Below the pieces are notes generated by a model. That model worked only from the letters and a program-made list of their open reading frames with translations, did no database searches and was not told where the DNA came from. Both the position numbers and the translations under genes were made by a program. 64,000 nt of DNA from an uncultured virus (IMG/VR IMGVR_UViG_3300022836_000006) (lineage: Duplodnaviria > Heunggongvirae > Uroviricota > Caudoviricetes), in the IMG/VR virus record IMGVR_UViG_3300022836_000006; one strand, written 5' to 3'. Below, piece after piece: positions 16,958 to 41,149 of this stretch; position 1 is the stretch's first letter, and each line of letters begins with the position of its first letter.

Positions 16958-16977
16958 TTTACTAAAATCATTACATC

Positions 16978-17490: not shown

Positions 17491-17535
17491 TTAAATACTA
17501 GGAGCGCCTCAGTTTTACCAGTAATATAATAAATC

Positions 17536-17829: not shown

Positions 17830-17847
17830 AAAAAGGAGACCCATAAA

Positions 17848-18204: not shown

Positions 18205-18223
18205 CGGAAAGGGAAACACTATT

Positions 18224-19975
18224 ATGAAAATCATTACACAATATTTGGTGCTTTGGGCACTCTTAGCCGGACTGCTCTTCGGTCAAGTGGAGACGGTCAA
18301 GAAGAGTCCGGGCAATGATGAAATTACAGAGGATTTGGTAATCCCTGAAGGACGGGCTCTGACGGTCGATGGGACTCTGACGGTCAATGGCCTCGATGTT
18401 GGCAGTGTGTCGTCGCAATTCGCCGCCCGGCAAATGGCAGGCTACGGCATCAGCGACGGGGCGACGGCGAACCGTGGCGAGATCCTAACGCCGGGTGCGA
18501 TTGGGGACGTGGCTGGTTTACCAATGTCATTTCTCGCGGTCATAGACGTAGGCACATCTGACCCATCTTTAAATTCTGGCGTCATTTACATCGGAGACTC
18601 TACTTCTCCTAACTTCTCGACCGGGGGCGGGACCAGCAATGCCTCATACGCATATATTACAACCGGGGGAAGCCTGCAGATTCGAGTAAATGGGGCAGCT
18701 GGAAGTAATTATCGCCGCCTGATTTACACGGATTTCCGCACGGCTTATTCGGGTCGCAATGGACTCCGATTGGCGATAGTTTTCCCTGAAGGGAATAGCA
18801 CCACGAGCCCCAGAATCGAGGTCGATGGGGTGGATGTTACAGGGAGTTTTGCCCTCAGCACCGCTGGAGTAATTCCGAACTGGATTCCAACTGCTCTAGA
18901 AACTACCAAGTACCTATGGGGGTATCAATGGTCAGCAGGTCGCAGTCCCTACGTGCGAGCGATCATCGGCGCACTTAGCACCGCCGAGTCCGCAACGTGG
19001 GGCACCACCGGCGAGCTGCCGACGTGGGCGACTAAGGCGGGTAGTGCGGTAAATCCTATCGCGAATAGCGGATTTGAAACGACTGGTTCCGAGGGGACTT
19101 CCGTTTTTGCCAATTGGTGGGGCGGCGCGAACCTCACAACATCAGCTGAAACTAGCGATCCTTACGTTGGCGCTAACTCTCTTAGGCTAACCGGAGGGGG
19201 TGCATTGTCCTCAACCCTGAACAACCATTTGAGGGCTGAGCCTTTCGGACTCGACAACTTCGGGGCTCCATGGACTCCCGGTCAATATGGCAGAGTTACT
19301 TTTGCGGCAAAACACGTTTCAGGGGGCAGTCTCTATTTCGGTAACGCTTACGTATCCCTGAAAACAGTCGCATCTGGAGACGCGAGCGGGTGGACTGAGT
19401 TTGAGTGGTCTGGGATTATTACTAGCAGCTCCGGCTATGCAGCCCCTGTTTTTGGAGCGGCATCAAGCGCGGTTTGGTTAATTGATAAAGTAGTGTTTTT
19501 GCAAGAGGGATTAATAGACGACCCATACTACCAGCCAGCCCTTGCTACCGGTGACCGTCTAGGCCGCATGTCCCGCCGCTTGCTGGGTATCACTCCGATG
19601 GTCGCGCTCGGAGTCTCTGAGGTCGTCATCAGTCACACGCTATCATGGGACGGCACCAATCACACCGCGCAATCCCTCACCGGCGGCAAAGCGTTTGAGG
19701 CGGGCTTTGTTCCGACCATGATTTCGCTCGTGCCCGACGCCGCCAGCTCCGGCGACGGTTGGACTATCGGCACCTCCGCCGATGCCGACCAATACAAGAC
19801 CGTGGCGAGCTACTCGACCGGGAAAACGATCTACACGCAGGCCGACTTCGCGAGCCGCGTTCCCGGCGGCACCGGCGCGACCAACCTCGACCTCCTCATC
19901 GATCCCGATACCGCCAATTACACCGGCAGCATCGAGGTCACCATCTACGGCAGCAACACCGCGGGATCCCCCTAA
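18224..19975 (+). CDS. Fibre/receptor-binding-type protein A (LamG-like plus carbohydrate-binding-like domains)
   Basis: Probable start MKIITQY. NPIANSGFET resembles a CBM domain start. Homologous to 39135..40718. Followed by chaperone-like gene. Confidence 0.65.
   Translation: MKIITQYLVLWALLAGLLFGQVETVKKSPGNDEITEDLVIPEGRALTVDGTLTVNGLDVGSVSSQFAARQMAGYGISDGATANRGEILTPGAIGDVAGLPMSFLAVIDVGTSDPSLNSGVIYIGDSTSPNFSTGGGTSNASYAYITTGGSLQIRVNGAAGSNYRRLIYTDFRTAYSGRNGLRLAIVFPEGNSTTSPRIEVDGVDVTGSFALSTAGVIPNWIPTALETTKYLWGYQWSAGRSPYVRAIIGALSTAESATWGTTGELPTWATKAGSAVNPIANSGFETTGSEGTSVFANWWGGANLTTSAETSDPYVGANSLRLTGGGALSSTLNNHLRAEPFGLDNFGAPWTPGQYGRVTFAAKHVSGGSLYFGNAYVSLKTVASGDASGWTEFEWSGIITSSSGYAAPVFGAASSAVWLIDKVVFLQEGLIDDPYYQPALATGDRLGRMSRRLLGITPMVALGVSEVVISHTLSWDGTNHTAQSLTGGKAFEAGFVPTMISLVPDAASSGDGWTIGTSADADQYKTVASYSTGKTIYTQADFASRVPGGTGATNLDLLIDPDTANYTGSIEVTIYGSNTAGSP
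18414..18504 (+). repeat. Shared fibre block 1; inverted copy at 40528-40618
   Basis: Both encode QFAARQMAGYGISDGATANRGEILTPGAIG with only a few third-position differences. Confidence 0.95.
18947..19051 (+). repeat. Shared fibre block 2; inverted copy at 39993-40097
   Basis: PYVRAIIGALST(A/D)ESATWGTTGELPTWAT(K/Q)AGSAV; near-identical DNA. Confidence 0.95.
19517..19593 (+). repeat. Shared fibre block 3; inverted copy at 39478-39554
   Basis: DDPYYQPALATGDRLGRMSRRLLGIT; two synonymous differences seen. Confidence 0.95.
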
Positions 19976-19988
19976 CCCCTAACCAACC

Positions 19989-20546
19989 ATGAAGCGAATC
20001 ACTTATCTTATCCTCATTGGGCTGGCGTTATCGCTTGTCCTCTCCGCTCAATCGCAATCGCGAATCGTCGAGCTCGGCAGTGATGCGCCGAGTCCATCTG
20101 CTAGGGTCACGTCTATCGATCCCGGCGCAGGGGTTATCTTCTTCGGTTGGGTTGGGGACGATGGTTTTGCCGTTGGCTCCGGCACCTATATTGCGCGATT
20201 TGCTCCGCTCACTGCCGATGCTGAGACCGGAGAATTTGCCGGTCTCACCGATGCCGAGATCGTAGCCGCCATCCTCGCCCCGGATCCTCCCGCAGCGGTG
20301 CCCGCCAGCGTGACGCCCTACCAACTTTGGCGAGCACTCAAGGCCGAGTTTGGTTTATCACGCACTGAAGTCCTGACCGCTGTAAACGCGATCACGAACG
20401 CGGACACCAAGGACGCCTACCTTACTGCCATCGAGACGCCCCAAACCTACGAACGGGCAGACCCGACGATCGTTGCACTTGGGTTGATGCTCTCTCTTTC
20501 CTCCGATGATCTCGACACGCTGTTCCGTGCGGCCGCGAGGCTCTAA
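19989..20546 (+). CDS. Fibre assembly chaperone-like protein
   Basis: C-terminal VTPYQLWRAL...YERADPTIVALG...DLDTLFRAAARL pattern common downstream of fibre genes. Confidence 0.6.
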   Translation: MKRITYLILIGLALSLVLSAQSQSRIVELGSDAPSPSARVTSIDPGAGVIFFGWVGDDGFAVGSGTYIARFAPLTADAETGEFAGLTDAEIVAAILAPDPPAAVPASVTPYQLWRALKAEFGLSRTEVLTAVNAITNADTKDAYLTAIETPQTYERADPTIVALGLMLSLSSDDLDTLFRAAARL

Positions 20547-20551
20547 CCTCC

Positions 20552-21079
20552 ATGCGTCTCTCGCAAACAGAACTTAGATCGATCCTACTCATGGGCGGAG
20601 TGCCGTGTGTGGCACCGGGGTGGACGTTTTTTGATGCTTACTACGAGACGGTGAGCGTTGCGACGGTGCGGAAGATTCAGACTGCTTGGATGGATACGCT
20701 ACCTGATGAATTGACGACCAATCGGCGAATTGGAGGGGGGAAGTCCGTTCGGGTTCCTGTGCACACGATGGCTGGTAAGACAAACCCGGCCGATGACGAA
20801 GCCGGTGATTGCGACGATCACGGCGTGGGGCTGATGAATCACGCCAGAACGGGAAACTGGTTGAAGTCAGTACGGCTTGGCATCCCCCTTGGTGGTCTCG
20901 CAATTGGCCCAACGATTTTCTATTCGCTCCCTTCCCGAGCTAACGGCATGCGGTCCGGCAAGCATCTTCTGAATTGGGCAATCAACGGGAGTCGGCGGCT
21001 TTACTTCTGGGAGCCGGGAGACTCTGACATTGCCATTTTAACGCCCACCGAAAGGGCAACCGCAACCTGGGGATGTTGA
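20552..21079 (+). CDS. Putative papain/transglutaminase-like cysteine hydrolase
   Basis: GDCDDH, KHLLN and FWEP motifs consistent with a Cys-His-acid triad. Confidence 0.5.
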   Translation: MRLSQTELRSILLMGGVPCVAPGWTFFDAYYETVSVATVRKIQTAWMDTLPDELTTNRRIGGGKSVRVPVHTMAGKTNPADDEAGDCDDHGVGLMNHARTGNWLKSVRLGIPLGGLAIGPTIFYSLPSRANGMRSGKHLLNWAINGSRRLYFWEPGDSDIAILTPTERATATWGC

Positions 21080-21207
21080 GCGATGATAAAGCGCCTTATC
21101 TTCATTTTTCTCACCCTCGCCTGCGCTGGATGTCAGACGGTCACTCCGGTGGAGCAGACCGATGAGCCCGACGTTTGGCGCAATCCTAACGCCCGATATA
21201 TTGAGCC

Positions 21208-21966
21208 ATGAATCCCGACGCACTCCCATCTACCTCTGAAGTCTTTTCCATCTCGTTTCTCTCCACGTGGGGCGGTATCTTGTTTTGGATTACGATGCTT
21301 GGTCGCGCATATAAATCGACGCGCAATGGTGGAGGGTTGCGTGGTCTTTACCGCGGTCTCATTTACGGCGAAAACGTGCCGACCTCGATTGCCAAAGACT
21401 ACGAGGTTGAGTTGGCTAGGGAGAATAAGCGAAAACCGAAGGGCCCCTTTCCGATCGCCCTACTTGCCTTGTGCATCGCTTTTTTTTCAGTGGGGCCGAT
21501 TGGTTGCGCCACAAACCCCGGCAATGAACCGACTACGACCGAGCAGCGTGTTCGGCAGGTTGAGCTTATTTCTGCTGCCGTATCCGGTATTGTGCAACTT
21601 GCCGTTGCTTCCGACATTGCCAAAAATCCCGACCATCGCGCCTACTATGCTGCGGCCTCTGATGCTATCCTGATCGCCGCCGACACGGGAGTGAGTGATC
21701 CGACCTCGATTGCCGCTCTGGTCAAACGCTACACCTCCGACAGCTACGACGCGATCGCGGAGGCTTCGCTTGCGGCCGGCATGGGGCTCTACCAGTCGTT
21801 TTATTCCATTAACGTATCTAGTGCCTTGGACACAAAACCCGCGTTTAAGGTGGCCCTTGTCGCCATCGCTCAAGCAATCAACCGGGCTTCTTCTCCCGTC
21901 GCCGCGACCGAGCGACTTGCTGAACCTCCTTTTCTTCGGATTCCCGATGATCTGATCCTGCGTTAA
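21208..21966 (+). CDS. Membrane protein, holin-like N-terminus plus internal lipobox-like segment
   Basis: Hydrophobic N-terminal helix; second hydrophobic stretch ending IGC; at end of late operon. Confidence 0.45.
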   Translation: MNPDALPSTSEVFSISFLSTWGGILFWITMLGRAYKSTRNGGGLRGLYRGLIYGENVPTSIAKDYEVELARENKRKPKGPFPIALLALCIAFFSVGPIGCATNPGNEPTTTEQRVRQVELISAAVSGIVQLAVASDIAKNPDHRAYYAAASDAILIAADTGVSDPTSIAALVKRYTSDSYDAIAEASLAAGMGLYQSFYSINVSSALDTKPAFKVALVAIAQAINRASSPVAATERLAEPPFLRIPDDLILR

Positions 21967-21967
21967 A

Positions 21968-22162
21968 ATGGGCACGATCAAAGCAGTATTCTCTTTTCTT
22001 GCCGCCTTCCTGGGCGGACGAAACGCTGCGGCCAAACGTGCCAACACGCCAGAGATGAAGGCCAACGCTCAAGCCAAGCAGGACGCTGCGATTAAGGATG
22101 CAGTGCGGACCTCCGCAAAGAAGCGAAACCTCGAACAGATCAGAAAGGACTTGGCGGAATGA
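21968..22162 (+). CDS. Small membrane-anchored protein (i-spanin-like)
   Basis: N-terminal hydrophobic segment and helical tail; overlaps following lipoprotein gene. Confidence 0.45.
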   Translation: MGTIKAVFSFLAAFLGGRNAAAKRANTPEMKANAQAKQDAAIKDAVRTSAKKRNLEQIRKDLAE

Positions 22163-22512
22163 GAACGTTTTCAGCACTTCTTTTTGTCGTGGTCCTATCG
22201 GGCTGCGGGACTTCCCCGGTCATCCCTGATTTGGTGGCTCCTGCAGAGTTAGCCAGCTTTGATCCTGCCGATGGCGCCGAGCCTACCAGTGGCATCGTCT
22301 CCGTCGACGAGCAGGGGCTGACAATCACCACCAATGGTCGGGCACGCTACAACTCCTTGGTTGACGAATATGGGCACGAGTTTGTGCCTCGAATAAAAAA
22401 GGATTACGGCGTCTCGCCGTTGGAGGGGGGATTCTATTTTCTAAATAACGCCGGATTTGAAAAGTGGGGCATCATGGCCGAGTGGCGAAAAATGGGAAGG
22501 CAACCAAACTAA
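22159..22512 (+). CDS. Lipoprotein (o-spanin-like)
   Basis: MRTFSALLFVVVLSGC lipobox. Confidence 0.55.
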   Translation: MRTFSALLFVVVLSGCGTSPVIPDLVAPAELASFDPADGAEPTSGIVSVDEQGLTITTNGRARYNSLVDEYGHEFVPRIKKDYGVSPLEGGFYFLNNAGFEKWGIMAEWRKMGRQPN

Positions 22513-22877
22513 TGACTCAACAACGCAAAGAAGAGCTAAAACAAAAAACGGTCAATGTGGTCGATTTATTCACGCGTTCTGCAGCGGTGATTGCGATGAT
22601 GCTTTCGTCGTGGATGCTATTTACGGTTAACTCTAACGAGAACGATATCGTCAAAAGTCGAGGGGAGTATATTTCGTTGAGTGCCGATGTTTTAGTGCTT
22701 GGTAAGTCGCTCGATGAAGTCAGTCGTCTGTATTATCCTATCGATGCCGCAAACAAGCACGAGGCGTGGGCGTTGCGATTGGCGGCGGATAGTCGCGACG
22801 ATCGCAGGGAGATTAAACAGCGGATGGACACGATCATCGATTTGTTGATGAACGGTCGGCGGCAGGTCTTGCCATAG
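22512..22877 (+). CDS. Hypothetical membrane protein
   Basis: TAATG-coupled start (MTQQRK); one TM helix plus coiled coil. Confidence 0.5.
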   Translation: MTQQRKEELKQKTVNVVDLFTRSAAVIAMMLSSWMLFTVNSNENDIVKSRGEYISLSADVLVLGKSLDEVSRLYYPIDAANKHEAWALRLAADSRDDRREIKQRMDTIIDLLMNGRRQVLP

Positions 22878-22878
22878 G

Positions 22879-23143
22879 GGATTTGGAAACGGCTGGAGAC
22901 ACCTCACCCTGTCGGGGTGGGTGGCAGGAAACGCCCTGTGGGTTTGTGGTATCCGTGTGGGTTGCCAGCGATCGAAGTCGCGCCGTAGCAATGCCCCCGG
23001 CATACGTCCAGTTCAGGGTTTTGAGCGCTCAGTCGGAGGCACAGGATTTACGCCTGCCGTCTGAATCACTCCGGTCCAGTCCGCTACGGTTGCGAGCCGT
23101 TTGACAAATCCGCCTGATAGGGACCTCCGACTGAGTGCTCAAA
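22879..23143 (+). ncRNA. Candidate structured non-coding RNA or cis element
   Basis: Closing stem 22879-22894/23095-23111, several internal hairpins, and a 20-bp inverted repeat 23020-23039/23124-23143; no convincing ORF. Confidence 0.45.
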
Positions 23144-23427
23144 TGCTACGGTCCTCAGCTCTTGCGAGCACGTAGAATTAAGCCCGGATGGTATTAGTGT
23201 AATCAGTCCGGGCACCGTATTTACCTCAGTGGCTGTCGCTGCACGCTGCACAGGTTGCGGTTCTGGTTGTCCGCATAGTTGGCGGCATCGAGTAAAAACA
23301 GAAAACCCGAAGCGAAAACGGCGCCTCGGGCATCTGAATCTTAAGTCCACAAGAACTAAAAAAGTGTTAGCAGTCAGCACCGTTTTCGCTATGACAGCGC
23401 GATAGGAGCAGAAGAGTTGATCTAGAG

Positions 23428-23883
23428 TCAACGTTTTTTTTGGAGGAACGAGTCAACTCCCAGTAGCCACGCCTTGATTGCGTCGGGATTTGCGAGGGCT
23501 TGGGAGAGGATCTGGGCTTGTTTGGATGTGAGTCCTTTGGAGAGGGCTTCGAGGTCGGCATGAAGCTTTGCGCGTGCCTTGTCTGCGGTCGATCGAGCAG
23601 CGCTGAACCGCCGCCCCATGTCTTTGCGCGATCGACTGTCCTCCACTCGGTCCGATGCGTGTTCGGCGCTCCATATGGCGATCCCGTCGAGGTAGCGGCG
23701 GTCTCCCTCTGCAATGCCCATCCCTTTGGTTAGGATCTTGGCTACCATCTTGAGGCTTGGCGTAATAAGCCCCTTTTGCATTTTCGAGAGGGTGGACTTG
23801 CTGATCTCGGCTCGTCGGGCGATCTCGGCTGGTCGTAGGTCCACCTCGAGGCGGAGTTTGTCGAAGTATTGCGGAAATGTCAT
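23428..23883 (-). CDS. XRE-family HTH regulator
   Basis: AEIARRAEISKSTLSKMQKGLITPS. Confidence 0.85.
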   Translation of the reverse strand: MTFPQYFDKLRLEVDLRPAEIARRAEISKSTLSKMQKGLITPSLKMVAKILTKGMGIAEGDRRYLDGIAIWSAEHASDRVEDSRSRKDMGRRFSAARSTADKARAKLHADLEALSKGLTSKQAQILSQALANPDAIKAWLLGVDSFLQKKR

Positions 23884-25076
23884 GGCGTTGGTGGGGTAAT
23901 CTTTAGGAATTGTTGAGCTACAGTCGTCGGGACTAAAGCGGAGAGATATGAATTGTAGAGCCGGGTGGGGCTCTGGTGGCGCATTAGGGCTGCGACACGA
24001 TTGGCATTGCCGTCTATCGACATGAGGTAAGTGCAGAATGCTCTCCGGAAGCCGTTAAACGGCCATAGCGGGAGGTGCAGATCGCCCTCAAGCGAGGACG
24101 TGTGTTTAATGATGCGCCGCCAGTATCGTTTGCTGGGGGCGACGAATGGGCCGGTCTGCTCGGTCGTGAGATCCAGCCACCCCCATAAATTGGGGGGCAG
24201 GCCCATATCGGTGCTTAGGATCCAGTCGTCGTCGGTTTTACAGATTTCGGCCGGTATTCGGATCTGCTTTTCGTTGGTCTTGATCATGTCCCAGGTCATG
24301 CGGTCAGCTTCTGCTGTGCGGATGCCGGCGAAGGCTCGGACTGCGATGTTTGGGATGCATTGCGGCCGGTCGCTCATCACGAAGCGCAGGATTTCAGCGA
24401 TCTGGGTCGGCGTCGGTATTTGCTTCGGCTTGCGCTGGGGTTTGGGCAGATCGTCTTTTCGCAGATCAGCAATGGGGTTTTTACCGATCCAGCCGACCCG
24501 CTTGGCGTATCTGAAGAAGTTCCCCAGTGTCGTGCATCGGTTGTGCGCGGTTCTTGCTGCTTTCGGGGATAGAATGAATTTGAGCACTTCGGCGCGAAGG
24601 ATGGATGACATCATCCGGGATGGGCCGATGTTGCGTGCGAGTAGTCCGATCACGGAGTTGAGAGAGTCTACCGTGCGCCATTCTCGGTTGAGGCTACGCT
24701 TGATGCCGATGAAAAGTTGCCGAGCGTCATCGATGGTCACCTTGGAGTTGGAGTAATTGTCGAGGTAGTAGGTTGCGGCATCTGTGAGGGTTGCTCCGGT
24801 CGGCTGCAGGAGTCGGCGTGCTTGATCGAGGTCAGCGAGCACGTCTGGTTGCATGAGTGACTCGGCAGCGCCAGATCCGTAAGCGTTTAGGACTCGGCAG
24901 TGATTGCGCCATGCGGTGAGGGCTTTTTTCTCCGTCTCGAATCCTGGACGCTGGCGACGGCCGTTGATTGTGAGGGTGAGTTGCCACGGCTTTTTTCGTC
25001 CCTCGATGTGGGCGATGGGGATCGTTCCGCTTCGGGATGTCGGTGTCCGTTTTGTGGCAGTTTTGTGGGTGTTCAC
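23880..25076 (-). CDS. int: Tyrosine recombinase/integrase
   Basis: AFAGIRTAEA (R), ICKT (K), NGFRR, MRH, terminal Y; SAM-like middle domain. Confidence 0.85.
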   Translation of the reverse strand: MNTHKTATKRTPTSRSGTIPIAHIEGRKKPWQLTLTINGRRQRPGFETEKKALTAWRNHCRVLNAYGSGAAESLMQPDVLADLDQARRLLQPTGATLTDAATYYLDNYSNSKVTIDDARQLFIGIKRSLNREWRTVDSLNSVIGLLARNIGPSRMMSSILRAEVLKFILSPKAARTAHNRCTTLGNFFRYAKRVGWIGKNPIADLRKDDLPKPQRKPKQIPTPTQIAEILRFVMSDRPQCIPNIAVRAFAGIRTAEADRMTWDMIKTNEKQIRIPAEICKTDDDWILSTDMGLPPNLWGWLDLTTEQTGPFVAPSKRYWRRIIKHTSSLEGDLHLPLWPFNGFRRAFCTYLMSIDGNANRVAALMRHQSPTRLYNSYLSALVPTTVAQQFLKITPPTP

Positions 25077-25156
25077 GACGGTTTAAATGGGTAAATATGG
25101 GGTATTCGGAAGATATACGAATCGCAACTAAAATGATTATTTTAGAATACACGGGC

Positions 25157-25190
25157 TTGACTTGTGTAAGTATTTCCACAATTCTTCGGC
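25157..25190 (+). promoter_or_regulatory. Putative early promoter with overlapping palindrome
   Basis: TTGACT -35-like box in the AT-rich divergent gap; TTGTG-N10-CACAA at 25162-25181. Confidence 0.4.
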
Positions 25191-25439
25191 GTGCCTAAAA
25201 ATTCGAGTCCGATGATTGCGGTTCCGATAAGGTTTCCGGTCGATTTAAAAAAAGAATTGGAGGCGGCGGCGTCCAAGTTTGGGCTCAGTTTTTCCGACAT
25301 CTCCCGTTTATCGATGGAGCGTGGGGTAAAGACCCTAGTTGCTCAGCTAGGAGCACAAGTGGCCACTAGGGGTATCCCCCTACCTGAACGCGTAATTGAA
25401 GACATCAAATTGCGTAAAATATTGGAAAAGAAGGGCTAA
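25191..25439 (+). CDS. Ribbon-helix-helix (CopG/Arc-like) regulator
   Basis: VPIRFPVDLKKELEAAASKFGLSFSDISR. Confidence 0.65.
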   Translation: MPKNSSPMIAVPIRFPVDLKKELEAAASKFGLSFSDISRLSMERGVKTLVAQLGAQVATRGIPLPERVIEDIKLRKILEKKG

Positions 25440-25441
25440 TA

Positions 25442-25714
25442 ATGGGTTCATCCACTGAAGTCCTATCTTCGCTTCCACGGGTTCTCAAGATCGGGTTTGT
25501 GGGGCGGGTTATCCGATCGGATGCGCAGGCTGCGACCTACTGCGGTATGGGGCGCGAAAACTTCCGAAGCTGGGCATTGCGGAATAAATTGCGGCCTGAA
25601 ATCAAGGCGCAGGAACGTGCACAAAACATCTACAGCGTCGAGGAATTAGACCTCATCATGGACCAGGAAGTGGCCGATTGTAAGGCCGGCAAGCTGCGCC
25701 TCAGACAGCGTTGA
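25442..25714 (+). CDS. Excisionase-like HTH protein
   Basis: AQAATYCGMGRENFRSW...YSVEELD; divergent from integrase. Confidence 0.55.
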   Translation: MGSSTEVLSSLPRVLKIGFVGRVIRSDAQAATYCGMGRENFRSWALRNKLRPEIKAQERAQNIYSVEELDLIMDQEVADCKAGKLRLRQR

Positions 25715-25722
25715 TTTTCATC

Positions 25723-26805: not shown

Positions 26806-26806
26806 G

Positions 26807-28093: not shown

Positions 28094-28115
28094 CCTTTAA
28101 TCACCCCCAAATATT

Positions 28116-28586: not shown

Positions 28587-28589
28587 GCC

Positions 28590-29558: not shown

Positions 29559-29754
29559 TGGCAGGCAAATCTCCCAGTGTCGTCTCTGTAATCATCCACA
29601 GGCGTGGGGATGCTCGCTACGAGTGGCATGCCTTGTGTCGTAGCACTTACATTGCCGTATCCTCCAGATCATTTGGCGATCGCGCTTCAGCCGTCCGAAA
29701 CGCTCGGCGGTGTGCATCGGTGTTCAATCAATCAACAATCAAAATCCAAAAAGA

Positions 29755-30165: not shown

Positions 30166-30171
30166 TTTCTG

Positions 30172-32907: not shown

Positions 32908-32959
32908 CAACTTCTACCATGAACGCCGCCAACAATCACCTCCCAAACATTGACCACCA

Positions 32960-34036
32960 ATGATACCCGCAAACCAAACCCCTCCCACGACCGCCAAGCC
33001 GCGACCAGCTGGTTCGCACTTTTCCGTAGCAGTCAAATCTGAATGGAAAGGAGGCTGGCAAGCTGAGTTCAGTGTCGGAGTGCAGACCTTCGCAGTCGGG
33101 CCAGAGTATAAGACGTTTTCAGAAGCACAGTGGATGTCTGACCGACTACGGGAAGCCCTCACGTCTATTGCGAAGTCTGAACCCGCACAACGGTCTGCAT
33201 CGCTTTGCTGCCCAGACTGCGAGGATACCGGCATGGTGGGCGATCAGGAAGCAGGCGGCATGTATCGGGGATCCAAACGGACGCTCAACGACGAATGGGC
33301 AATGTGCGGGTGTGATCCGGGGGCCCTGGCGGTCCGTAATCTCGCAAAACGATCAGGGCCGAACACCGGAGATCAGCTATGAGCGACTCAAATAAAGGCA
33401 ACTGGGCGACGGCTACGGCCGCCCAAAAAGAGGCAGTGAATGAAGCGTGGCGTCGCGCCGCACAACGGTCCGAATCGGTGGATTTGCTGACCAACCGGAA
33501 AACAGACTCCATCGTCAAAGACAGAGACTACCATATCACCGGATACGTGCTTACATCTAAGTCAGGAAAGGAATCCTGCGTCGTAGATAGAGCAGCAGTC
33601 CGATGGCTCACGAGCGTGGAATGGTGGGAGCTCATGCACCCCGCGAGCGACGACCTCGCGCCGAACAATGAACACACCCCGAAAAACGACCGTGAATAAC
33701 ACTCAAAATTCCAAAGGCGTGACTGGATCGAATTGTCTGCATAATCTGGTTTCCTTATTTCGCAACCGGTTGATCCCCAGCGAGGGCCGGACTCAGGGCG
33801 AGCAATACTATGACGACAGGTGGTTCGCGCTCTCCGACGGGTGCGATACGGTCCAGAATCTAGCCGATGACCTCGAACCGATTATCGAGGAAAGTGAACG
33901 TCGAAAGGAAGCACTCGAATGGTGCCTACGCAAACTCAAAACCCATCACGCGACCAAGCGCGGAATCTCCGCGTTAATCAAAGAAACTGAAGCGATGACG
34001 AACACCCAGTTGAGCCGCGAGCCCAAACAACCCTAA
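32960..34036 (+). CDS. Three accessory hypothetical genes (32960-33382, 33379-33699, ~33692-34036)
   Basis: Coupled short ORFs ending PNTGDQL, PNNEHTP, TNTQLSR (left-arm peptides). Confidence 0.55.
33729..33751 (+). repeat. 23-bp direct repeat; second copy at 35707-35729
   Basis: CGAATTGTCTGCATAATCTGGTT, identical, encoding NCLHNLV in both ORFs. Confidence 0.95.
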
Positions 34037-34055
34037 CCCAGCCCCATCCAATATC

Positions 34056-34958
34056 ATGCCCAATAATCCCACCCCTCCCGCTGCCGTGCAACCTAGGCTT
34101 GTTGGCTCAACGTCTGGTTCGGCCAATCTGGAAGACTTACTAGCGAGGTGCAAAAAGCTCCATTCGTTTATCGGATGGTATTGCATGTCATGCGATTCCG
34201 AGGTCGATGCGACATACCGAGAACGCTGCGCGTCATGTGGCGGCGTCCTACATGACGAGACAATCACCGGAAACCTAGTCGAAGCGGCGACTTATGAATT
34301 AAACGCACTGAAGTGTCCGTGGCATCCTATCGAAACTGCACCGAAGGACGATAGGATAGACATATGGCTGTCTTGCGGCACCCGATGGTGCGACTGTTAC
34401 TATGATGTGATTTGCGACCAATGGCGAACGAGTAGGCCATCCGGGAATCTCCTTTCGGTCAAAGCAAGGTTTGTATCTCACTGGATGCCCATACCGCAAT
34501 CACCGAAACCCGCGAATGATGCGCCTCGCCAGAAGCGACTGGTTCGGCTCGATCGCTCAAACTACCTCGACTTCGATCCGCCTCAACGCTGCGAGTGCGG
34601 GGGATCCCTCCAAGTCAAAGACTATCCAAACCGCCGGGATGAATCGAGGTATGAGGTATTCTGCCCGCAATGCTCACAATGTGACCCAAACGGCTACGGA
34701 TCGCAGCGTGAAGTAATCGACCAATTCCCCAGTATACTTTCTGAGAACTCTGGTTCTAAATTTTATGCCGATGATAGAGGCAACGTCGTGGACTACTACG
34801 ACGAAACTGAGCAAGTCGCGCGAATAGATAGAGAGGCTACCGTCAACGGGAAGGCCGATCAAAGCACCTTCGACAACTGGGCGGGAGGCCAAGCACTAGA
34901 GGCGTGGATGCGACTCAACGACTACGGGGAGGAACTCGATGAGGCGGCCCGAATTTGA
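34056..34958 (+). CDS. Mosaic accessory protein (Zn ribbon, DUF551-like, second Zn ribbon)
   Basis: CxxC pairs; WHPIETAPKD...SHWMPIP; reads through an internal right-arm repeat. Confidence 0.6.
   Translation: MPNNPTPPAAVQPRLVGSTSGSANLEDLLARCKKLHSFIGWYCMSCDSEVDATYRERCASCGGVLHDETITGNLVEAATYELNALKCPWHPIETAPKDDRIDIWLSCGTRWCDCYYDVICDQWRTSRPSGNLLSVKARFVSHWMPIPQSPKPANDAPRQKRLVRLDRSNYLDFDPPQRCECGGSLQVKDYPNRRDESRYEVFCPQCSQCDPNGYGSQREVIDQFPSILSENSGSKFYADDRGNVVDYYDETEQVARIDREATVNGKADQSTFDNWAGGQALEAWMRLNDYGEELDEAARI
34506..34544 (+). repeat. 39-bp direct repeat; second copy at 35034-35072
   Basis: AAACCCGCGAATGATGCGCCTCGCCAG(A/C)AGCGACTGGTT. Confidence 0.95.
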
Positions 34959-35110
34959 TGCGAGCCCGGCGGATTGAGCCGCAAGCCGTAGGCTCAAATC
35001 GCTTTGTTCGGCACTATTCCCACCCCACCTCAAAAACCCGCGAATGATGCGCCTCGCCAGCAGCGACTGGTTAGCCTCCGAATTTCAACCGTAACAGAAA
35101 ATATAATACA

Positions 35111-35680
35111 ATGAGCGATACACCCAAAACTGACAGCGCATTTGATACCGGTCCCGGTTCGGGCAAGCTAATGTGCCAACTACTCGAAAAGGAGACCGCA
35201 CGCCACGCGGAGATACTACACGACGGCTATGCTGTCTACTCGCAACTCACGGACCACGAAAAGAAATACACATCAGCAGAAAACGTTTCCACCGTTCTCG
35301 ATGCGTTCAAACGCGCAGTGGCTAACAACGAGGTCAGACGCGACCCGTCGAAGGCTTAAAACCTCAACCAACCAATAAAAATGTCATACCAAAATAAAAT
35401 GTCAGAAGCCGGACAGCGAGGGTCGTTGTCTGAAGTGGTTTGTTATGCTCAGATTGGCATCGACTGCTGCAATCAACCGATAATCCCAACGCGTGCCAAG
35501 CTGTCGATGCACACCAATCGGCACACCAGCACGTCAGGAAACTCGTGGGGATGGGTCGATGGTTGCTCGCTAAACATATGCTGGTCAAACGACGGCGAGA
35601 AATTCAACAGAAAAAAGGCCGCTGAACTGGTTGCTTTGCATAACACCACTATCAGACAAGAGGGCCAACCCAATGAGTAA
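35111..35680 (+). CDS. Two accessory hypothetical genes (35111-35359, 35381-35680)
   Basis: Short ORFs whose junction lies inside the 35320-35448 palindrome. Confidence 0.55.
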
Positions 35681-36011
35681 CCGAATTTCAAATACCGTCA
35701 AAGGCCCGAATTGTCTGCATAATCTGGTTCTGTCTCTGGTGCTTACTTTTCAATGGTATGCAGCGACAAAAACAGGAGGCAAGCGCATCGAATATCGCGC
35801 CATGTCCGCCTGGTGGAAGCCGCGAATATGGGAGCTAAGATCAGAGATAACGCACGTCCGATTCTATCGAGGCATGACAAAAGAGACGCTCGAATTTCTA
35901 GTGGACAAAATAGACATAGGACCGTGCCCGATCCCGAAATGGAAGGGCCAATACTACCGCATCCACTTTTCCCAGAACACTAAGCTCATCAACAAGGCGA
36001 AGCCGGTTTGA
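35673..36011 (+). CDS. ASCH/PUA-like domain protein
   Basis: LVLTFQWY...GGKRIEYR...WWKPRI...VRFYRG. Confidence 0.6.
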   Translation: MSNRISNTVKGPNCLHNLVLSLVLTFQWYAATKTGGKRIEYRAMSAWWKPRIWELRSEITHVRFYRGMTKETLEFLVDKIDIGPCPIPKWKGQYYRIHFSQNTKLINKAKPV

Positions 36012-36053
36012 TGCAGCGACTGTTCGGCACTTTATTATGACCCTTCCAAATCC

Positions 36054-36413
36054 ATGAAACGATCCCCACTTAAACGAGGCACCAGCCAACTCAAGCGCAC
36101 GCCGATCAACAAGGTCAGCCCACGGCGTAAACGTGAGTCAGCCATCTATTCCAAGGCCAAGAAACAAGCGTTCTTCGAACTGGCTGGCGATCAGTCAAAC
36201 GGGGAGGACGAGCCAATTGCGCTGTGCGAACGATGCATGACAACTGCCGAATGGAACGAAGACGCTAAGCCTGCTCAGGACTGGCACCACTGGCACCCAG
36301 TTGGACAAGGTGGTCCCTACCTAGGCGGACGGATGATCTGCGTCTGTCGGCCATGCCATGACTGGATTCACCAGCACCCGGCTATTGCCCGAAAGGACGG
36401 GTGGCTCAAGTAG
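36054..36413 (+). CDS. HNH-like endonuclease
   Basis: CERC, DWHH, CVCRPCHDWIH; basic N-terminus. Confidence 0.7.
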   Translation: MKRSPLKRGTSQLKRTPINKVSPRRKRESAIYSKAKKQAFFELAGDQSNGEDEPIALCERCMTTAEWNEDAKPAQDWHHWHPVGQGGPYLGGRMICVCRPCHDWIHQHPAIARKDGWLK

Positions 36414-36506
36414 TTGACTTTTGACTACTCCGACCGTTCTCCTCCTGCATAGATATTGATCGATCAGAGAGTTGTTCGGGTAGCATACAACGCCAGCGAA
36501 ACTCTC

Positions 36507-36541
36507 GCCCCCTGTCCTGTGATCGCAGGCAGGGGGCTTTT
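36507..36541 (+). terminator. Intrinsic terminator at convergence of early region and module B
   Basis: GCCCCCTG(T)CCTG...CAGGCAGGGGGC-TTTT. Confidence 0.7.
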
Positions 36542-36543
36542 CG

Positions 36544-37158
36544 TTAGATCGGGAGGAACCTTTTCAGGAACGCATACACTCTGCGGAAAGTCTGACGAAA
36601 CCAGCCCGGTATCTTGATCTCTCGGTTATAGGGACCGGACCCTTCCTTCATGATCGGCCGGTTGGCGTTGAACTGCCAGTAGTCCACGGCTCGACCTGTT
36701 CGAGTCTGGATGTCCAGCGTAACCTCTCGGGTGACTGCGTTACTCTGGTCTGAGTGCTCACCTAGTGCCACGTCCGTAGCCTTACCATGGCCCAACAGGA
36801 CGGTGACGATGAAGATGTCCCGGCTTCCACCCTTACAGGTGATGGCGTAGCGCCCACCCGGTAGCAGTCCATCTGCTGCATAGATAGTGAGGTTTCGACA
36901 CTCGTTGTTGATGTCGATGCAGTCCTCTTTGCCTCCCGGCACCACTCCTATGATCATCACACGCAGGTCAATGACTCCTGAAAACTTGACGGTGTCGCTG
37001 ATACCTGCCGGCAGGACCAAGCCTCTCAGGTTCAGCGTGTAGACTCGCACATTGCCCGGGGTCCAGTCCCGGTCCCAGAACAGGATCAGGCCATTGAGCC
37101 AGATATTGCCCTCTGTGTCGCCGGTGAACGAATACAGGTTTACATCAGGCTTGCCCAT
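36544..37158 (-). CDS. Hypothetical protein, possible beta-helix
   Basis: TAATG-coupled start MGKPDV; EDCIDIN motif. Confidence 0.55.
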   Translation of the reverse strand: MGKPDVNLYSFTGDTEGNIWLNGLILFWDRDWTPGNVRVYTLNLRGLVLPAGISDTVKFSGVIDLRVMIIGVVPGGKEDCIDINNECRNLTIYAADGLLPGGRYAITCKGGSRDIFIVTVLLGHGKATDVALGEHSDQSNAVTREVTLDIQTRTGRAVDYWQFNANRPIMKEGSGPYNREIKIPGWFRQTFRRVYAFLKRFLPI

Positions 37159-37391
37159 TAGTTTCCCCCCCCAACCACTTTGAAGACTTGGACGCCGACG
37201 ACCCAAACCAAAGAGAGCGCCCCTGCCGCACCTCCAAGCCATAAAACGCCACGCTCGAGCGCACTGATGCGACGGTCATGATCTGTCACCTGATGGACTA
37301 GACCACGGTGGCCTAAGTTCTTGTCGCCCACTAAGGCATTTTCAATCCGCTTAACGGACGCGACGAGATCGTTGTAGTTGTTATCACTCAT
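37158..37391 (-). CDS. Small membrane protein (holin-like)
   Basis: Coiled coil plus C-terminal TM helix. Confidence 0.5.
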   Translation of the reverse strand: MSDNNYNDLVASVKRIENALVGDKNLGHRGLVHQVTDHDRRISALERGVLWLGGAAGALSLVWVVGVQVFKVVGGGN

Positions 37392-37416
37392 GGTTTGTTT
37401 TGCCCCTGCTGCACCT

Positions 37417-38232
37417 TCAGATGCGAGTTAGCTTAGCGTGTCTCGATGCTACCTTTTTGTGGTCATCATCTAAAGATTCGTCCATGAGCTGCTCAACCTG
37501 TGCTCCAATTTCGGTGCCGACTTTGGCTCGGATCGCATTCATTCCTTCGCCAACCTTCGTAAGCCCCTTTTGCGCCCTGCTGTAAGCATAACTCATGGCT
37601 GGACTGATTACCCCATTGGCAACGGCAGCAACGCCCGAAAACGCCGGGTTGAGGCGGGCCAGCAAGCTCAATACATTCCCAGCCACAAAGAGAAAGGCCA
37701 ACAAACCAGCGATGAACCAAAAGTTTCTCACCGTGTTGGCCAGCTTGCGCTCCCTGATGTAGCCGGCTTCGAGCTTGTCAGTCTGGCGCTCCACCAGCGT
37801 ATGCAGCTCGGCATTGTCGTCAGCCAGATCGGCAGATCGATCCTCTGCATCCATCTGCAACCTCTCAGCTTTGCCCCGTGCGGTCATTTCGGCGCTCAAC
37901 AGTCCCTCCACTATGGCTCGAGCCTTAATCGTCTCTCCTAGCGGGACAGGCCCGTTTGCTGTAGCCAATATGCTCTCAGTGTTGGTGGCCATGCGTCGCG
38001 CTACATCAACTGGCTGGGATTTCTCTGCTCCTGACAATGCCGCGACCGTCTTCACTGCTTCCAGCTGTGCCGCTCGGATCATCGCCCGCTCGTTCACCTC
38101 GATCTTTTTCTCAACCTTGGCAACTGCCTCGGCACGATCAGTGCCCCACGTCATCGGATTCCAGAGAACCTTTGTGCCTTGGGTGGCGCACCCGCCCAAC
38201 AGGAGCAGTCCCACAACAGCGAGGATCTTCAT
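37417..38232 (-). CDS. Lipoprotein with coiled coil and distal TM segment (spanin-like)
   Basis: MKILAVVGLLLLGGC lipobox; FWFIAGLLAFLFVAG TM. Confidence 0.55.
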   Translation of the reverse strand: MKILAVVGLLLLGGCATQGTKVLWNPMTWGTDRAEAVAKVEKKIEVNERAMIRAAQLEAVKTVAALSGAEKSQPVDVARRMATNTESILATANGPVPLGETIKARAIVEGLLSAEMTARGKAERLQMDAEDRSADLADDNAELHTLVERQTDKLEAGYIRERKLANTVRNFWFIAGLLAFLFVAGNVLSLLARLNPAFSGVAAVANGVISPAMSYAYSRAQKGLTKVGEGMNAIRAKVGTEIGAQVEQLMDESLDDDHKKVASRHAKLTRI

Positions 38233-38714
38233 TCGTTTGCCCCCTTGGTGTAGATCTGCCCAACCAGTATCTGGGTTACTGTGCTCCGAGGAACCCACCC
38301 ATCATATCGAGCGTTTGAGATCCCCACTGAGATGAAATGCGTGTCATTGATTGCAGCAACTTGGTGGAGGATACGCTTACCATCCCGAGCCGACACCACG
38401 ATCTGCCCCACCACAAGAATCCTGCCATCGGCTGGCGCGTAGATGGGGATTACTGAGCTGTCGATAAGTGGCTCCATTGAGCCCGTAGGATTGACGCTTC
38501 CGAACGACCCGCCCGGGATGGCACCTGCCCACTCCCTAGCAATTGCAAAGCCCTGCTCGTAAGTTACAGCACCTTTGGGTGCACGACCTTTCTCGAGCCC
38601 TGTGTTGCGCTCCGAGTCACCCTTGCCGCAGCCCGTGATCAGCATCAGCCACAGCAACACGCATGTGACGAAGAGGCTGACTATACAGGCTCTTAAGAGG
38701 TCGGAGCCTCTCAT
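38229..38714 (-). CDS. S24/S26-like serine peptidase, membrane anchored
   Basis: PTGSMEP, RILHQV, GISNARYD resemble the signal peptidase GxSMxP / HR / GDN-D motifs. Confidence 0.55.
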   Translation of the reverse strand: MRGSDLLRACIVSLFVTCVLLWLMLITGCGKGDSERNTGLEKGRAPKGAVTYEQGFAIAREWAGAIPGGSFGSVNPTGSMEPLIDSSVIPIYAPADGRILVVGQIVVSARDGKRILHQVAAINDTHFISVGISNARYDGWVPRSTVTQILVGQIYTKGANE

Positions 38715-39133
38715 GGTGCAAGTAGCAATTCCCACCGCGCAGTTGCGATGATGTTCAGCGCGTTAAGTGCAGGCACCCCGGCCACGAAAGCAGGGTCGTC
38801 CGACCTGATAGCGCCCTCTGCTGTTGCCATAGCCACAAACGCCTTAATCTGCCATTGGTCAGAGCCAAACAAGGCTGCTGATTCCGCATCCGTAAGCCTG
38901 CTGATAACCGTTCGCGTTGATTGCCGAGCGACCGCAGGCGCAGGTGCTGGCGGGTTGGCAAGGTCGGCTTCAACGTTCGCGGCTGTTGCTTCACCGTTGG
39001 CTGGCATTCCGATACGTTTGCCGCTCGGCGTTTGGATGATGTAACTCGCGCCGTCGATTTCGACTACGGTCCCAAGGGCGCAATCAAATGGCTCAAATAC
39101 GACCTCTTCTTCAGTTTCGATGTCTTCGCTCAT
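38711..39133 (-). CDS. Fibre chaperone-like protein
   Basis: Start MSEDIET; directly after fibre B; helical C-terminus. Confidence 0.5.
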   Translation of the reverse strand: MSEDIETEEEVVFEPFDCALGTVVEIDGASYIIQTPSGKRIGMPANGEATAANVEADLANPPAPAPAVARQSTRTVISRLTDAESAALFGSDQWQIKAFVAMATAEGAIRSDDPAFVAGVPALNALNIIATARWELLLAP

Positions 39134-39134
39134 A

Positions 39135-40718
39135 TTAAACAGGTGTTGAAATTTGGTGACCTCTGACAAAGGTGCGAACGACCATCGTCCCGTCGGACTT
39201 GGCCCAAAGGTTCGCAGTAGCAACCTTGCGAGTTGCGAGAGTGCTAGGATTAACCCCAGCTGCAAGTGCTGCACTAGCGACATACGTGGTGAGTGCTCCC
39301 GTGGCGGAGCCGACAGAGGTGGTAGGCGTTCCGCTCGCTGGCACTTGCTCGATGCTGTCAATGACCGTAGTGCCTACGTCAATGACTGGGCCACCGAGGA
39401 TCTGCTCACCACCGGCGGCGCTGGAGTCAGTGTTACCGATGACGATGAAATCGTTTTGCCCGAGGGCAGGAACGGGCGTGATACCCAGCAAGCGGCGGGA
39501 CATGCGGCCTAGACGGTCGCCGGTGGCAAGGGCTGGCTGGTAGTATGGGTCGTCAATGAGTCCGGGCCGTAATATCTTAATGTAGTCTACCTCCCAGTTT
39601 GCGGCTGCGGTAGTGCCCAGACGCAATTGGTTCTGACCTGACCCGTCATTATCAGAAATCGTAAGAGTGCCCGACCACACTTCCCACGCAGGGGTGCTTT
39701 GCGTTAATTCAAGGTCAAGCTCTTTATCTCCGGTGTCTCGCGTGAAGTAAAGTATGTCTCCAGCAGATCCTCCGACCCGACGAGCCCGAAGCTCGTAGTA
39801 AAAGGGATCGCCTACACCAAAGCCTGAAAATCCACCGGTGTCTACCAAACTGTTGTTACCCGAATTAGTAAGTCCATTGCCCGTGATCTGCACGCCGTCT
39901 GTCGTCTCGGCGGTCGTAATACTTACTCCAGTAGTCCACCCGTCCGGCGTGCTGCCAGTAAAGTCTGTGAACTCGCCGTGAGACAACGTGTCTACCGCGC
40001 TACCCGCCTGAGTCGCCCACGTCGGCAGCTCGCCGGTGGTGCCCCACGTTGCGGATTCGTCGGTGCTGAGTGCGCCGATAATTGCTCGCACGTAGGGAAC
40101 GCGGCCAGAGGGCCAATCGAGACCAAATCCCACATACGTTGTCGCTACGTTGTTTGGCATCCAGTTGGACCCAGTGCCGAGAGTCTCTATCGTGAACGAA
40201 CTAGAAACATCGACACCGTTAATTTCAAAACGCGGTTTTGTTGAGCTATTACCTTCGGTGAATATGATAGCAACTGAAAGTCCTTTGACCCCAGAATAAT
40301 CAGCACGAAATCCGCTGTAATTATACCGCTCCCACTGGGTCGAACTTGCGTTGTTTTGCTGAATCCGCAAATTCCCGTCTGTAAATAGACTAAAAATAAA
40401 AACGCCCTCCTCTGTAAAATCTAACGGGAACTGAGAATTTGCATAAAATAATCGAGCGGTGGCACTTATATTAGCAGACGGCACGTCAAGCACTGCCAAA
40501 ATTGTAAGGGGCAAACTCGTCACCGCGCCAATTGCGCCCGGCGTGAGGATCTCACCACGGTTCGCCGTCGCGCCGTCGCTGATGCCGTAGCCTGCCATTT
40601 GCCGGGCGGCGAATTGCGGGCCGACCACGTCCTGAAGCCCAATGCGGTCCCGCATCTGTTCCTGTGATGCCGATTGCATGAATGCATGAATGTCACTGCC
40701 TACTGTAATGTCTGCCAT
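39135..40718 (-). CDS. Fibre/receptor-binding-type protein B
   Basis: Homologue of 18224..19975 with different N-terminus, CBM-like middle and C-terminus. Confidence 0.65.
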   Translation of the reverse strand: MADITVGSDIHAFMQSASQEQMRDRIGLQDVVGPQFAARQMAGYGISDGATANRGEILTPGAIGAVTSLPLTILAVLDVPSANISATARLFYANSQFPLDFTEEGVFIFSLFTDGNLRIQQNNASSTQWERYNYSGFRADYSGVKGLSVAIIFTEGNSSTKPRFEINGVDVSSSFTIETLGTGSNWMPNNVATTYVGFGLDWPSGRVPYVRAIIGALSTDESATWGTTGELPTWATQAGSAVDTLSHGEFTDFTGSTPDGWTTGVSITTAETTDGVQITGNGLTNSGNNSLVDTGGFSGFGVGDPFYYELRARRVGGSAGDILYFTRDTGDKELDLELTQSTPAWEVWSGTLTISDNDGSGQNQLRLGTTAAANWEVDYIKILRPGLIDDPYYQPALATGDRLGRMSRRLLGITPVPALGQNDFIVIGNTDSSAAGGEQILGGPVIDVGTTVIDSIEQVPASGTPTTSVGSATGALTTYVASAALAAGVNPSTLATRKVATANLWAKSDGTMVVRTFVRGHQISTPV

Positions 40719-40730
40719 TTGATTTCCTTC

Positions 40731-41134: not shown

Positions 41135-41149
41135 GATTTTTTTGGTAGG

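Follow-up and report, generated by a model that had tools for sequence, protein, structure and literature searches.

Two tail-fibre genes, fibA and fibB, in a 64,000-nucleotide (nt) stretch of DNA from an uncultured virus (IMG/VR record IMGVR_UViG_3300022836_000006; this whole stretch is called the window below) share three blocks of nearly identical sequence, and mosaic fibre alleles with identical cassettes exist on different phage backbones (Table 1; coordinates of all features in Table 2). Taken as a whole, the data are best explained by an exchange of cassettes between phages at these blocks, with the window representing two separate phages from salt-lake metagenomes: a temperate phage A with an SU10-like portal, which carries fibA, and a T7-like phage B, which carries fibB. 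We put the probability of this explanation at roughly 0.78. An earlier note, made from the letters of the window, had already proposed the blocks as exchange points for receptor-binding domains, and this part of the proposal is borne out by the mosaic alleles, by switch points inside the blocks and by the conservation of synonymous sites. The same note had also proposed an inversion between the two fibre genes, on the condition that the contig is real.

The product of fibA comprises 621 amino acids (aa) when read from the first ATG; its relatives in databases begin at MKIITQY (position 18224), giving 583 aa. The fibB gene (527 aa) occupies the position of gp17 in T7-like phages and lies downstream of a gene whose product carries a tail-fibre N-terminal adaptor domain. 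Over 462 residues, FibA and FibB show 45% identity. A repeat search of the window returned three inverted repeat pairs, namely 18414-18549/40483-40618 (136 nt, 83% identity), 18929-19051/39993-40115 (123 nt, 89%) and 19508-19611/39460-39563 (104 nt, 88%), all of which lie in frame within the open reading frames (ORFs) of fibA and fibB. Trimmed on a codon alignment, blocks 1, 2 and 3 measure 90, 108 and 90 nt, with 93.3, 91.7 and 92.2% nucleotide and 100, 92 and 100% amino acid identity between the two genes. In the same alignment, the segment between blocks 1 and 2 (cassette S1) reaches 47.2% nucleotide and 39% amino acid identity, the segment between blocks 2 and 3 (cassette S2) 41.2 and 35%, and the C-termini 43.1 and 26%. 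The longest exact runs shared by fibA and fibB are 46, 45 and 41 nt, whereas no run above 16 nt arose when the codons of one gene were shuffled 200 times. Repeat search and codon alignment thus confirm the three near-identical inverted blocks of the earlier note as well as its description of a homologous but diverged S1 and of strongly different S2 and C-terminal segments; its block sizes of 91, 105 and 77 bp were roughly right, with the third block being somewhat longer than stated. No relation was found between the genes downstream of fibA and those downstream of fibB, and neither fibre protein has a match in Pfam or PHROGs. The N-terminus of FibA (18224-18290) begins with a hydrophobic, signal-peptide-like segment (MKIITQYLVLWALLAGLLFGQ), which is unusual for a virion fibre; A-type members of the family and some others, such as P0006 and P0008, begin in this way.

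For the mosaic analysis, six fibre alleles with available DNA were examined in 15 pairwise comparisons over four segments, the N-terminal anchor, S1, S2 and the C-terminal domain (Table 1). Nucleotide identity between alleles C and B2 is 100% in block 1, 100% in S1 (141 of 141 codons being the same) and 98% in block 2. In S2, allele C is 99% identical to fibB of the window (134/136 codons), and its N-terminus (100%) and C-terminus (96% of nucleotides) are those of fibA; allele B2 carries the N-terminus (100%) and C-terminus (94%) of fibB. The other, non-matching cassettes in these allele pairs show 36-51% identity. When the allele C contig L023 is aligned to the window by BLAST, the matches follow the layout A, other DNA, B, A, and the A and B matches overlap in block 3. 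Judged from the last and first informative sites of the codon alignment, allele C switches from type a to type c in block 1, from c to b in block 2 and from b to a in block 3, and all of these switch points fall within the exact cores.

Table 1 Segment types of the six fibre alleles
Allele	Source	N-terminal anchor	S1	S2	C-terminal domain
A	window	a	a	a	a
A'	L010	a	a'	a	a
C	L023	a	c	b	a
B	window	b	b	b	b
B2	L025	b	c	e	b
D	L028	d	d	d	a-like (88% of nucleotides)

The mosaic combinations predicted by the earlier proposal are therefore present in other assemblies, in the form of alleles C and B2. In contig L024, allele C is joined to 7.6 kb of phage-A backbone. It was also found in Logan contigs of the runs X22 and X1, which enter it from the fibA N-terminus: their loose end corresponds to window positions 18384-18413 and is followed by block 1, by 431 (X22) or 429 (X1) replaced letters and by block 2, with the X22 contig running on into a b-type S2. 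Allele B2 is joined to the phage-B genes at 39563-35324 and also occurs in run X18. Further cassette combinations were found in protein alignments. For example, P0004 has the N- and C-termini of FibA with a third S1 type and the S2 of FibB, P0005 combines the S1 and C-terminus of FibA with a new S2, in P0007 a FibB-like N-terminus is paired with a FibA-like S2, and P0009 continues from the FibA N-terminus into a different body; P0006 adds yet another combination. Among phage-A contigs, all 36 differences over 21,863 nt are confined to the interval from block 1 to block 2 (18570-18993), apart from one extra difference at 12806 in L011. None of the four other alleles could be recognised as the donor of this a' variant of S1.

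Several contigs break within the fibre genes: G003 starts at 39809, G004 ends at 40608, the contig of L012 ends at 18860, that of L024 ends within S2, and Ga0222655_1000099 carries two fibre alleles, one at each end. Such breaks fit the coexistence of several alleles in one sample, but they could also be brought forward for the view that the mosaics are artefacts, created when assemblers jumped at the identical cores from one co-occurring allele to another. With 41-46 nt, these exact cores are indeed longer than the Logan word length (k = 31). Nevertheless, we consider this origin of the mosaics improbable. Four assemblies (L023, L024, X22 and X1) contain allele C, and since its S1 is of type c, a type confined to mosaic contexts, and its C-terminus is 96% identical to that of fibA, it is not a splice of the two genes of the window. 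Moreover, a 127-nt overlap at the ends of IMG/JGI contigs points to a word length exceeding that of the cores, and, independently of allele C, the a' patch and the combinations seen at the protein level show cassette-wise variation.

Within the window, the transition from phage A to phage B takes place at a short stretch, R, which is 100% identical in phage-A and phage-B contigs. It takes in the last 12 codons of a small early gene as well as ~88 codons from the start of a gene for a protein of ~100 aa (35381-35680). On the side of phage A, contigs G001 (46.5 kb) and G005 (35.8 kb, starting at window base 1) match the window at 100% over 1-35645 and then continue into the same other DNA; G002 (52.7 kb) holds the same phage A, with 17 kb more on the left and its end at 35450. 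Phage A is at least 62 kb long. On the side of phage B, G003 (38.1 kb; 38,086 nt, CheckV 90%) runs from its start in fibB beyond the right end of the window, passes a terminase, a pectate-lyase-like spike and early genes of its own, and ends with 127 nt identical to window 35324-35450. Contig Ga0222655_1000099 (43,167 nt) covers the window from 39563 down to 35324 and then enters the phage-B early DNA of G003 at 100% identity. L025 and G003 have phage-B DNA on both sides of R, and by arithmetic from the contig matches phage B closes as a circle of 42,444 nt, around which Ga0222655_1000099 wraps. Each of the two phages has its own portal, capsid and terminase candidates. When all available phage-A DNA was compared with all available phage-B DNA, only five stretches proved to be common to both, which are R, the three fibre blocks and one stretch of 244 nt. 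The latter (22983-23219; L014 4166-4409; 83.6% identity) lies by the repressor/integrase region of phage A and has its counterpart in the early/late switch region of phage B, outside the window.

The longest contig recorded for both fibre clusters has 78,090 nt. Assuming that it starts at window base 1, the left part of A (35,323 nt), the circle of B (42,444 nt) and R (322 nt) add up to 78,089 nt, and this contig would then be a walk along A and once round B that stops at the next branch. Altogether, the join of A to B very probably is an assembly path through R. Independent contigs that take A past 35645 into other DNA and close B on itself argue against a single genome with both fibre genes. 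With separate genomes, the inversion of about 20 kb that the earlier note had proposed for a real contig loses its basis; such a crossover would require a real cointegrate. In that case phage B would have inserted into phage A or its prophage via a crossover at R, both fibre genes would be inverted relative to each other on one DNA, and recombination between the blocks would invert 20-22 kb and swap the fibre ends. A single crossover at R between a circle and a second genome would give exactly the order A-left, R, B, R, A-right, the window itself contains A-left, R and B-right in one piece, and in run X1 contigs from both A-left and B-left enter R while another, 35324-38932, is unbroken past 35645. 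We nevertheless regard a cointegrate as unlikely, because G001 and G005 leave R into DNA that is not phage B, L025 and G003 reach R from phage-B DNA, and the contigs of X22 and X18 diverge from the window after 35645. The agreement of the 78,090-nt contig with the walk through the graph (given the start at base 1) also speaks against it, and a cointegrate of ~105 kb would be larger than the genome of either phage.

The surroundings of R and of the left window end show further variation. At least three continuations exist at 35645, one in G001, G005 and X18, one in X22 and one in the window and L025, and additional points of divergence lie downstream at 35729 (X18) and 36190 (X21); the small early genes at 35324-36200 look like a cassette region that is exchanged among phages. 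A terminator-like hairpin (36515-36534) is located where the early (+) and the late (-) genes of phage B converge (36413-36544). It fits the layout of phage B itself and argues against a junction artefact at that point. A 45-nt word from 36860-36905 has no exact match in viral contigs. At the other end, the 5'-open ORF 1-3141 (+) represents the last part of an ORF of 4370 aa that precedes the phage-A portal (L016 5311-18423), and G001 and G002 drop to 73-79% identity directly left of window base 1, which suggests that this giant gene is another variable spot and assembly break point.

In addition to the mosaic alleles, synonymous sites distinguish the blocks from the rest of the fibre genes. 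At degenerate codons for residues that are the same in FibA and FibB, the same codon is used at 72 of 89 positions in the blocks versus 37 of 133 outside, and among the local alleles the synonymous sites of the blocks are not saturated, as they would be under conservation of the protein level only. The close set of the fibre family contains 8 proteins at E <= 1e-5 among 8000 candidates scored. A profile search of 1.84 billion representatives returned a wider family of 319 relatives at E <= 0.001, 173 of them at E <= 1e-30, many of which carry other N-termini. In an alignment of 86 relatives, conservation, expressed as the fraction of sequences with the commonest residue, amounts to 0.47, 0.50 and 0.48 for blocks 1, 2 and 3, and to 0.50, 0.24 and 0.35 for S1, S2 and the C-terminus. 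The block motifs are thus conserved across the 86 members, which marks the seams as old protein features. However, S1 is family-wide as conserved as blocks 1 and 2 and yet reaches only 39% amino acid identity between FibA and FibB, compared with 92-100% in the blocks. Furthermore, block 3 of the more distant allele D retains only 10 of 25 codons, which is the background level, with its protein sequence being conserved. Both observations suggest that the local near-identity of the blocks results from recent exchange on top of protein constraint.

The conserved motifs and the protein-only conservation of block 3 in allele D might also be taken to mean that the blocks are alike solely through strong purifying selection combined with a shared codon bias, in which case no recombination would be required. 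This is very improbable in view of the codon counts given above, of S1, which is equally conserved in the family but locally diverged, and of whole cassettes that are 99-100% identical across backbones.

An AlphaFold2 model of FibB computed with 86 sequences has a predicted local distance difference test score (pLDDT) of 85.8 and a predicted template modelling score (pTM) of 0.85; a previous run with 8 sequences was poor (pLDDT 45.9), and the fold search made with it is superseded by the 86-sequence model. In a VIA-align search of 48,161 chains, the model matches pentraxin/laminin G (LamG) folds over residues 41-419 (Z 14.0-14.7, root-mean-square deviation (rmsd) 2.9-3.8, only 181-202 residues aligned across this range) and carbohydrate-binding modules (CBM) of the families CBM22, CBM16 and CBM4 over residues 240-390 (Z 11.1-11.9, rmsd 2.7-3.3, 129-141 aligned). 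The profile of the fibre family also matches CBM4 chains of xylanases (E 2.1e-6 to 8e-5, profile positions 264-389). Pfam CBM_4_9 matches are weak and below the cut-off, occurring in 2 of the 8 close family members with a best E of 0.0026 among matches listed at E <= 1. With the whole model, Foldseek template modelling (TM) scores of only 0.14-0.39 to multi-domain lectin-like proteins indicate no more than the fold class, and the viral Laminin_G_3/CBM_4_9 proteins in the ESM Atlas (scores 0.88-0.91) serve as leads only.

Based on alignment ranges and secondary structure rather than coordinates, the simplest reading of the model is that block 1, S1, block 2 and block 3 form one LamG-like jelly roll, that the CBM-like S2 is nested between blocks 2 and 3, and that a further beta-rich C-terminal domain follows. 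S2 can accordingly be classed as CBM4/CBM22-like, combining a beta-sandwich fold in the model with profile similarity to CBM4 modules; this is in line with the earlier note, which had called the segment CBM-like. The blocks and S1 can be classed as a LamG/pentraxin-like (concanavalin A-like) jelly roll, a statement that refers to the fold only. The structure prediction which that note had suggested as a check on the block positions yielded a confident model, which suggests that the blocks are the seam strands of the LamG-like roll that holds the nested CBM4-like domain. If the domains are nested in this way, replacement of a cassette at the blocks would leave the fold intact. On the grounds of this predicted fold, the cassettes are candidate determinants of receptor specificity.

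From these data, the following course of exchange can be envisaged. FibA and FibB would be members of a single family of lectin-like receptor-binding proteins, with an N-terminal anchor specific to the respective backbone, followed by a LamG/pentraxin-like roll (S1), a nested CBM4-like domain (S2) and a C-terminal domain, with the seams being near-identical in DNA among co-circulating alleles (exact cores of 41-46 nt). Phages might meet in one cell by mixed infection or by infection of a lysogen, and a double crossover at two seams would swap the intervening cassette without breaking the fold. In this way, S1, S2 and the C-terminal domain could re-assort independently, even across unrelated backbones, while the N-terminal anchor would stay with its backbone. 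Recombinases acting on short homologies, such as the RecT/RecE-like pair of phage A, are candidate catalysts, but host RecA or enzymes of phage B are equally possible. The presence of RecT and RecE-type enzymes in the window, as stated in the earlier note, is supported by a RecT match to PF03837 (E 5.2e-39) and by a RecE-like exonuclease in phage A. Since R and one S1 cassette are 100% identical, contact between A-type and B-type phages was presumably very recent, which points to a shared host in whose co-infected cells the exchange presumably takes place; the only support for the 'one host' of the earlier note is this identical common DNA.

A more far-reaching interpretation is that the seam DNA is kept uniform across unrelated lineages as a shared docking site for short-homology recombination, although we regard this as rather doubtful. 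If true, the seams would constitute a plug-and-play standard, with a shared pool of LamG, CBM and C-terminal cassettes open to any phage that has this scaffold. RecT/RecE-type phage enzymes would then be the drivers of the process, and the nested architecture would make every double crossover foldable.

Several points weigh against the proposed exchange between separate phages. Short-read assemblies are the source of all alleles, and at exact repeats of 41-46 nt a Logan contig could in principle be mis-joined. A real A-R-B junction is conceivable in the sample of X1, which may be the source of the window, as the X1 contig 35324-38932 passes 35645 without a listed alternative; the depths of the X1 contigs (~6.4-7.8 on the A part and 11.1 on 35324-38932) are too coarse to separate genomes. 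In runs X21 and X22, Logan contigs cover 20800-35645 but none covers 36808-38808; such a gap in cover does not count as evidence and was left out of account. Because the synonymous sites of block 3 in allele D are at background, the identity of the blocks is partly due to purifying selection. The receptor-binding role of the cassettes is deduced from their fold, none of the results identifies the enzyme that produced the joints, and phage B yielded no recognisable annealing protein. Finally, a fibre relative was absent from the GTDB species genomes searched, and no host can be named on that basis.

The gene content of the window is consistent with two phages of different lineages (Table 2). 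Between the structural modules, phage A encodes an integrase, a repressor-like helix-turn-helix protein, RecT, a RecE-like exonuclease, a VRR-NUC nuclease and a DnaC-like loader. RecT and the exonuclease are both on the plus strand, 1.8 kb apart, and can be classed as a RecT/RecE-type pair. Between them lies a 428-aa ORF (26807-28093, +) with charged repeats rich in alanine, lysine and glutamate (direct families D1 and D2), which has no family match. In phage B, the structural genes follow the order of T7, and the classification as T7-like is based on this structural module; the module also comprises tail tube proteins A and B and internal virion proteins, and its PHROGs matches include phrog_394, phrog_376 and phrog_418. 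The 301-aa protein upstream of fibB is likely the adaptor for FibB. The phage-B portal is only ~28-31% identical to those of Pelagibacter and other podophages; among GenBank phages, tblastn found no match for fibB or for the phage-A portal. At the position of an internal virion protein, a 3227-aa protein (42097-51780, -) contains four ART-PolyVal (ADP-ribosyltransferase) stretches (PF18760, E 2.7e-58), and its gene has internal repeats of 172 nt with 95% identity (47619-47790/48402-48573). Two ORFs downstream of fibB (37417-38735, -) without a family match show lipoprotein-like signals, with a cysteine after a hydrophobic stretch, and possibly have a spanin or lysis function.

Table 2 Positions of the features in the window, with fibre genes first
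Feature	Position	Strand	Description
fibA, tail-fibre gene of phage A	18110..19975	+	621 aa from first ATG
Block 1 in fibA	18414..18505	+	exact core 18414-18459 common to fibB
Cassette S1 of fibA	18506..18943	+	variable body of predicted LamG/pentraxin-like jelly roll
Block 2 in fibA	18944..19051	+	exact core 18989-19033
Cassette S2 of fibA	19052..19507	+	CBM4/22-like nested domain (predicted)
Block 3 in fibA	19508..19597	+	exact cores 19517-19545 and 19553-19593
C-terminal domain of fibA, type a	19598..19972	+	
fibB, tail-fibre gene of phage B	39135..40718	-	527 aa
Block 1 in fibB	40527..40618	-	core 40573-40618
Cassette S1 of fibB	40101..40526	-	
Block 2 in fibB	39993..40100	-	core 40011-40055
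Cassette S2 of fibB	39564..39992	-	99% identical DNA in phage-A-type fibre L023
Block 3 in fibB	39474..39563	-	core 39478-39518
C-terminal domain of fibB, type b	39138..39473	-	
Phage A part	1..35323		giant virion protein end, portal, capsid, fibA, integrase, RecT, exonuclease, replication genes
R	35324..35645	+	322 nt, 100% identical in phage-A and phage-B contigs
Phage B part	35646..64000		small early genes (+) to 36413, then late genes (-)
SU10-like portal, phage A	3176-5383		Pfam/PHROGs
Capsid protein, phage A	13431-14912		Pfam/PHROGs
Tyrosine integrase, phage A	23880-25076		Pfam
RecT-family single-strand annealing protein, phage A	25711..26805	+	PF03837 E 5.2e-39; phrog_148 E 1.3e-69
RecE-like PD-(D/E)XK exonuclease, phage A	28590..29558	+	DUF3799 E 5.3e-21; phrog_412 exonuclease VIII E 1.9e-44
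Fibre-adaptor protein (likely), phage B	41150..42055	-	301 aa; tail-fibre N-terminal (tail attachment) domain, phrog_1640 E 1.9e-17
Capsid, phage B	58175-59077		PF19821 E 1.2e-64
T7-like portal/head-tail connector, phage B	61221-62897		PF12236 E 3.4e-112

The mosaic alleles document the movement of putative receptor-binding domains between unrelated phages in natural populations at single-nucleotide resolution, and thereby lend support from uncultured phages to the long-standing model of modular fibre evolution. The seams offer defined junctions for studying or re-targeting such fibres. At the same time, the window calls for caution, as a short identical stretch in co-occurring phages, here of 322 nt, can lead to a single metagenomic contig made of two genomes.

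Known systems for fibre variation differ from the one described here in several respects. In phage Mu (G segment and Gin), phage P1 (C segment and Cin) and plasmid shufflons, a site-specific recombinase acts on short crossover sites within one genome. Like in these systems, alternative fibre ends are inverted relative to each other in the window, which resembles the inversion idea of the earlier note, and the differences among phage-A contigs are limited to 424 nt of the fibre gene. A dedicated diversity machine, be it an invertase of the Gin/Cin or shufflon kind or a diversity-generating retroelement, is nevertheless the least probable of the explanations considered and can hardly be upheld: in a Pfam search at E <= 0.001, none of the 60 ORFs of the window matched a serine recombinase or a reverse transcriptase, and the sole recombinase match was the tyrosine integrase. 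In addition, the 36 changes affect all four bases and not adenines alone, as would be characteristic of a retroelement, and the two fibre genes apparently are on different genomes instead of on one replicon, as an invertase would require. Exchange by general recombination at the blocks is closer to the Rac RecET and lambda Red systems, for which arms of ~50 bp suffice (PMC11610958); phage A likewise has a RecT and a RecE-like exonuclease, and the cores of 41-46 nt are near that length.

Horizontal transfer and recombination of tail-fibre parts between unrelated phages has also been described for Alteromonas phages, where phages of one host that belong to distant families share host-recognition modules (Gonzalez-Serrano et al. 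2023, PMC10579305). Unlike in that case, in which a whole module is shared together with its chaperone, sub-gene cassettes with three seams are exchanged here and the anchor stays with the backbone. The closest parallel is provided by gp37/gp38 of T-even phages, in which recombination at conserved motifs (His boxes and glycine-rich motifs) swaps the specificity of the adhesin (Tetart et al. 1998, as cited in PMC12032242), and the motifs were proposed as recombination hot spots for modular shuffling (see also Trojet et al. 2011, PMC3157838). In both cases, conserved core motifs alternate with variable specificity segments, and the natural recombinants described here switch within the motifs. 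A relation to gp38 was not seen at the sequence level: FibA and FibB lack a Pfam match, and the 8 close family members have four weak matches at E <= 1, none of which is gp38. Fold searches with the FibB model list lectin jelly rolls and not gp38. Moreover, the cassettes are whole folded domains of 140-150 aa, as judged from the model, where gp37/gp38 exchange loops, and the exchange extends across two unrelated lineages, with cassettes of 99-100% identical DNA in natural populations. Altogether, the principle of exchange is already known from gp37/gp38, and the fibres of phages A and B are a clean natural example of it across lineages (SU10-like x T7-like), which is distinguished by its whole-domain cassettes, its predicted nested-domain scaffold, a clear case of a probably chimeric contig that arose through a short shared stretch, and the exchange between an SU10-like and a T7-like lineage.

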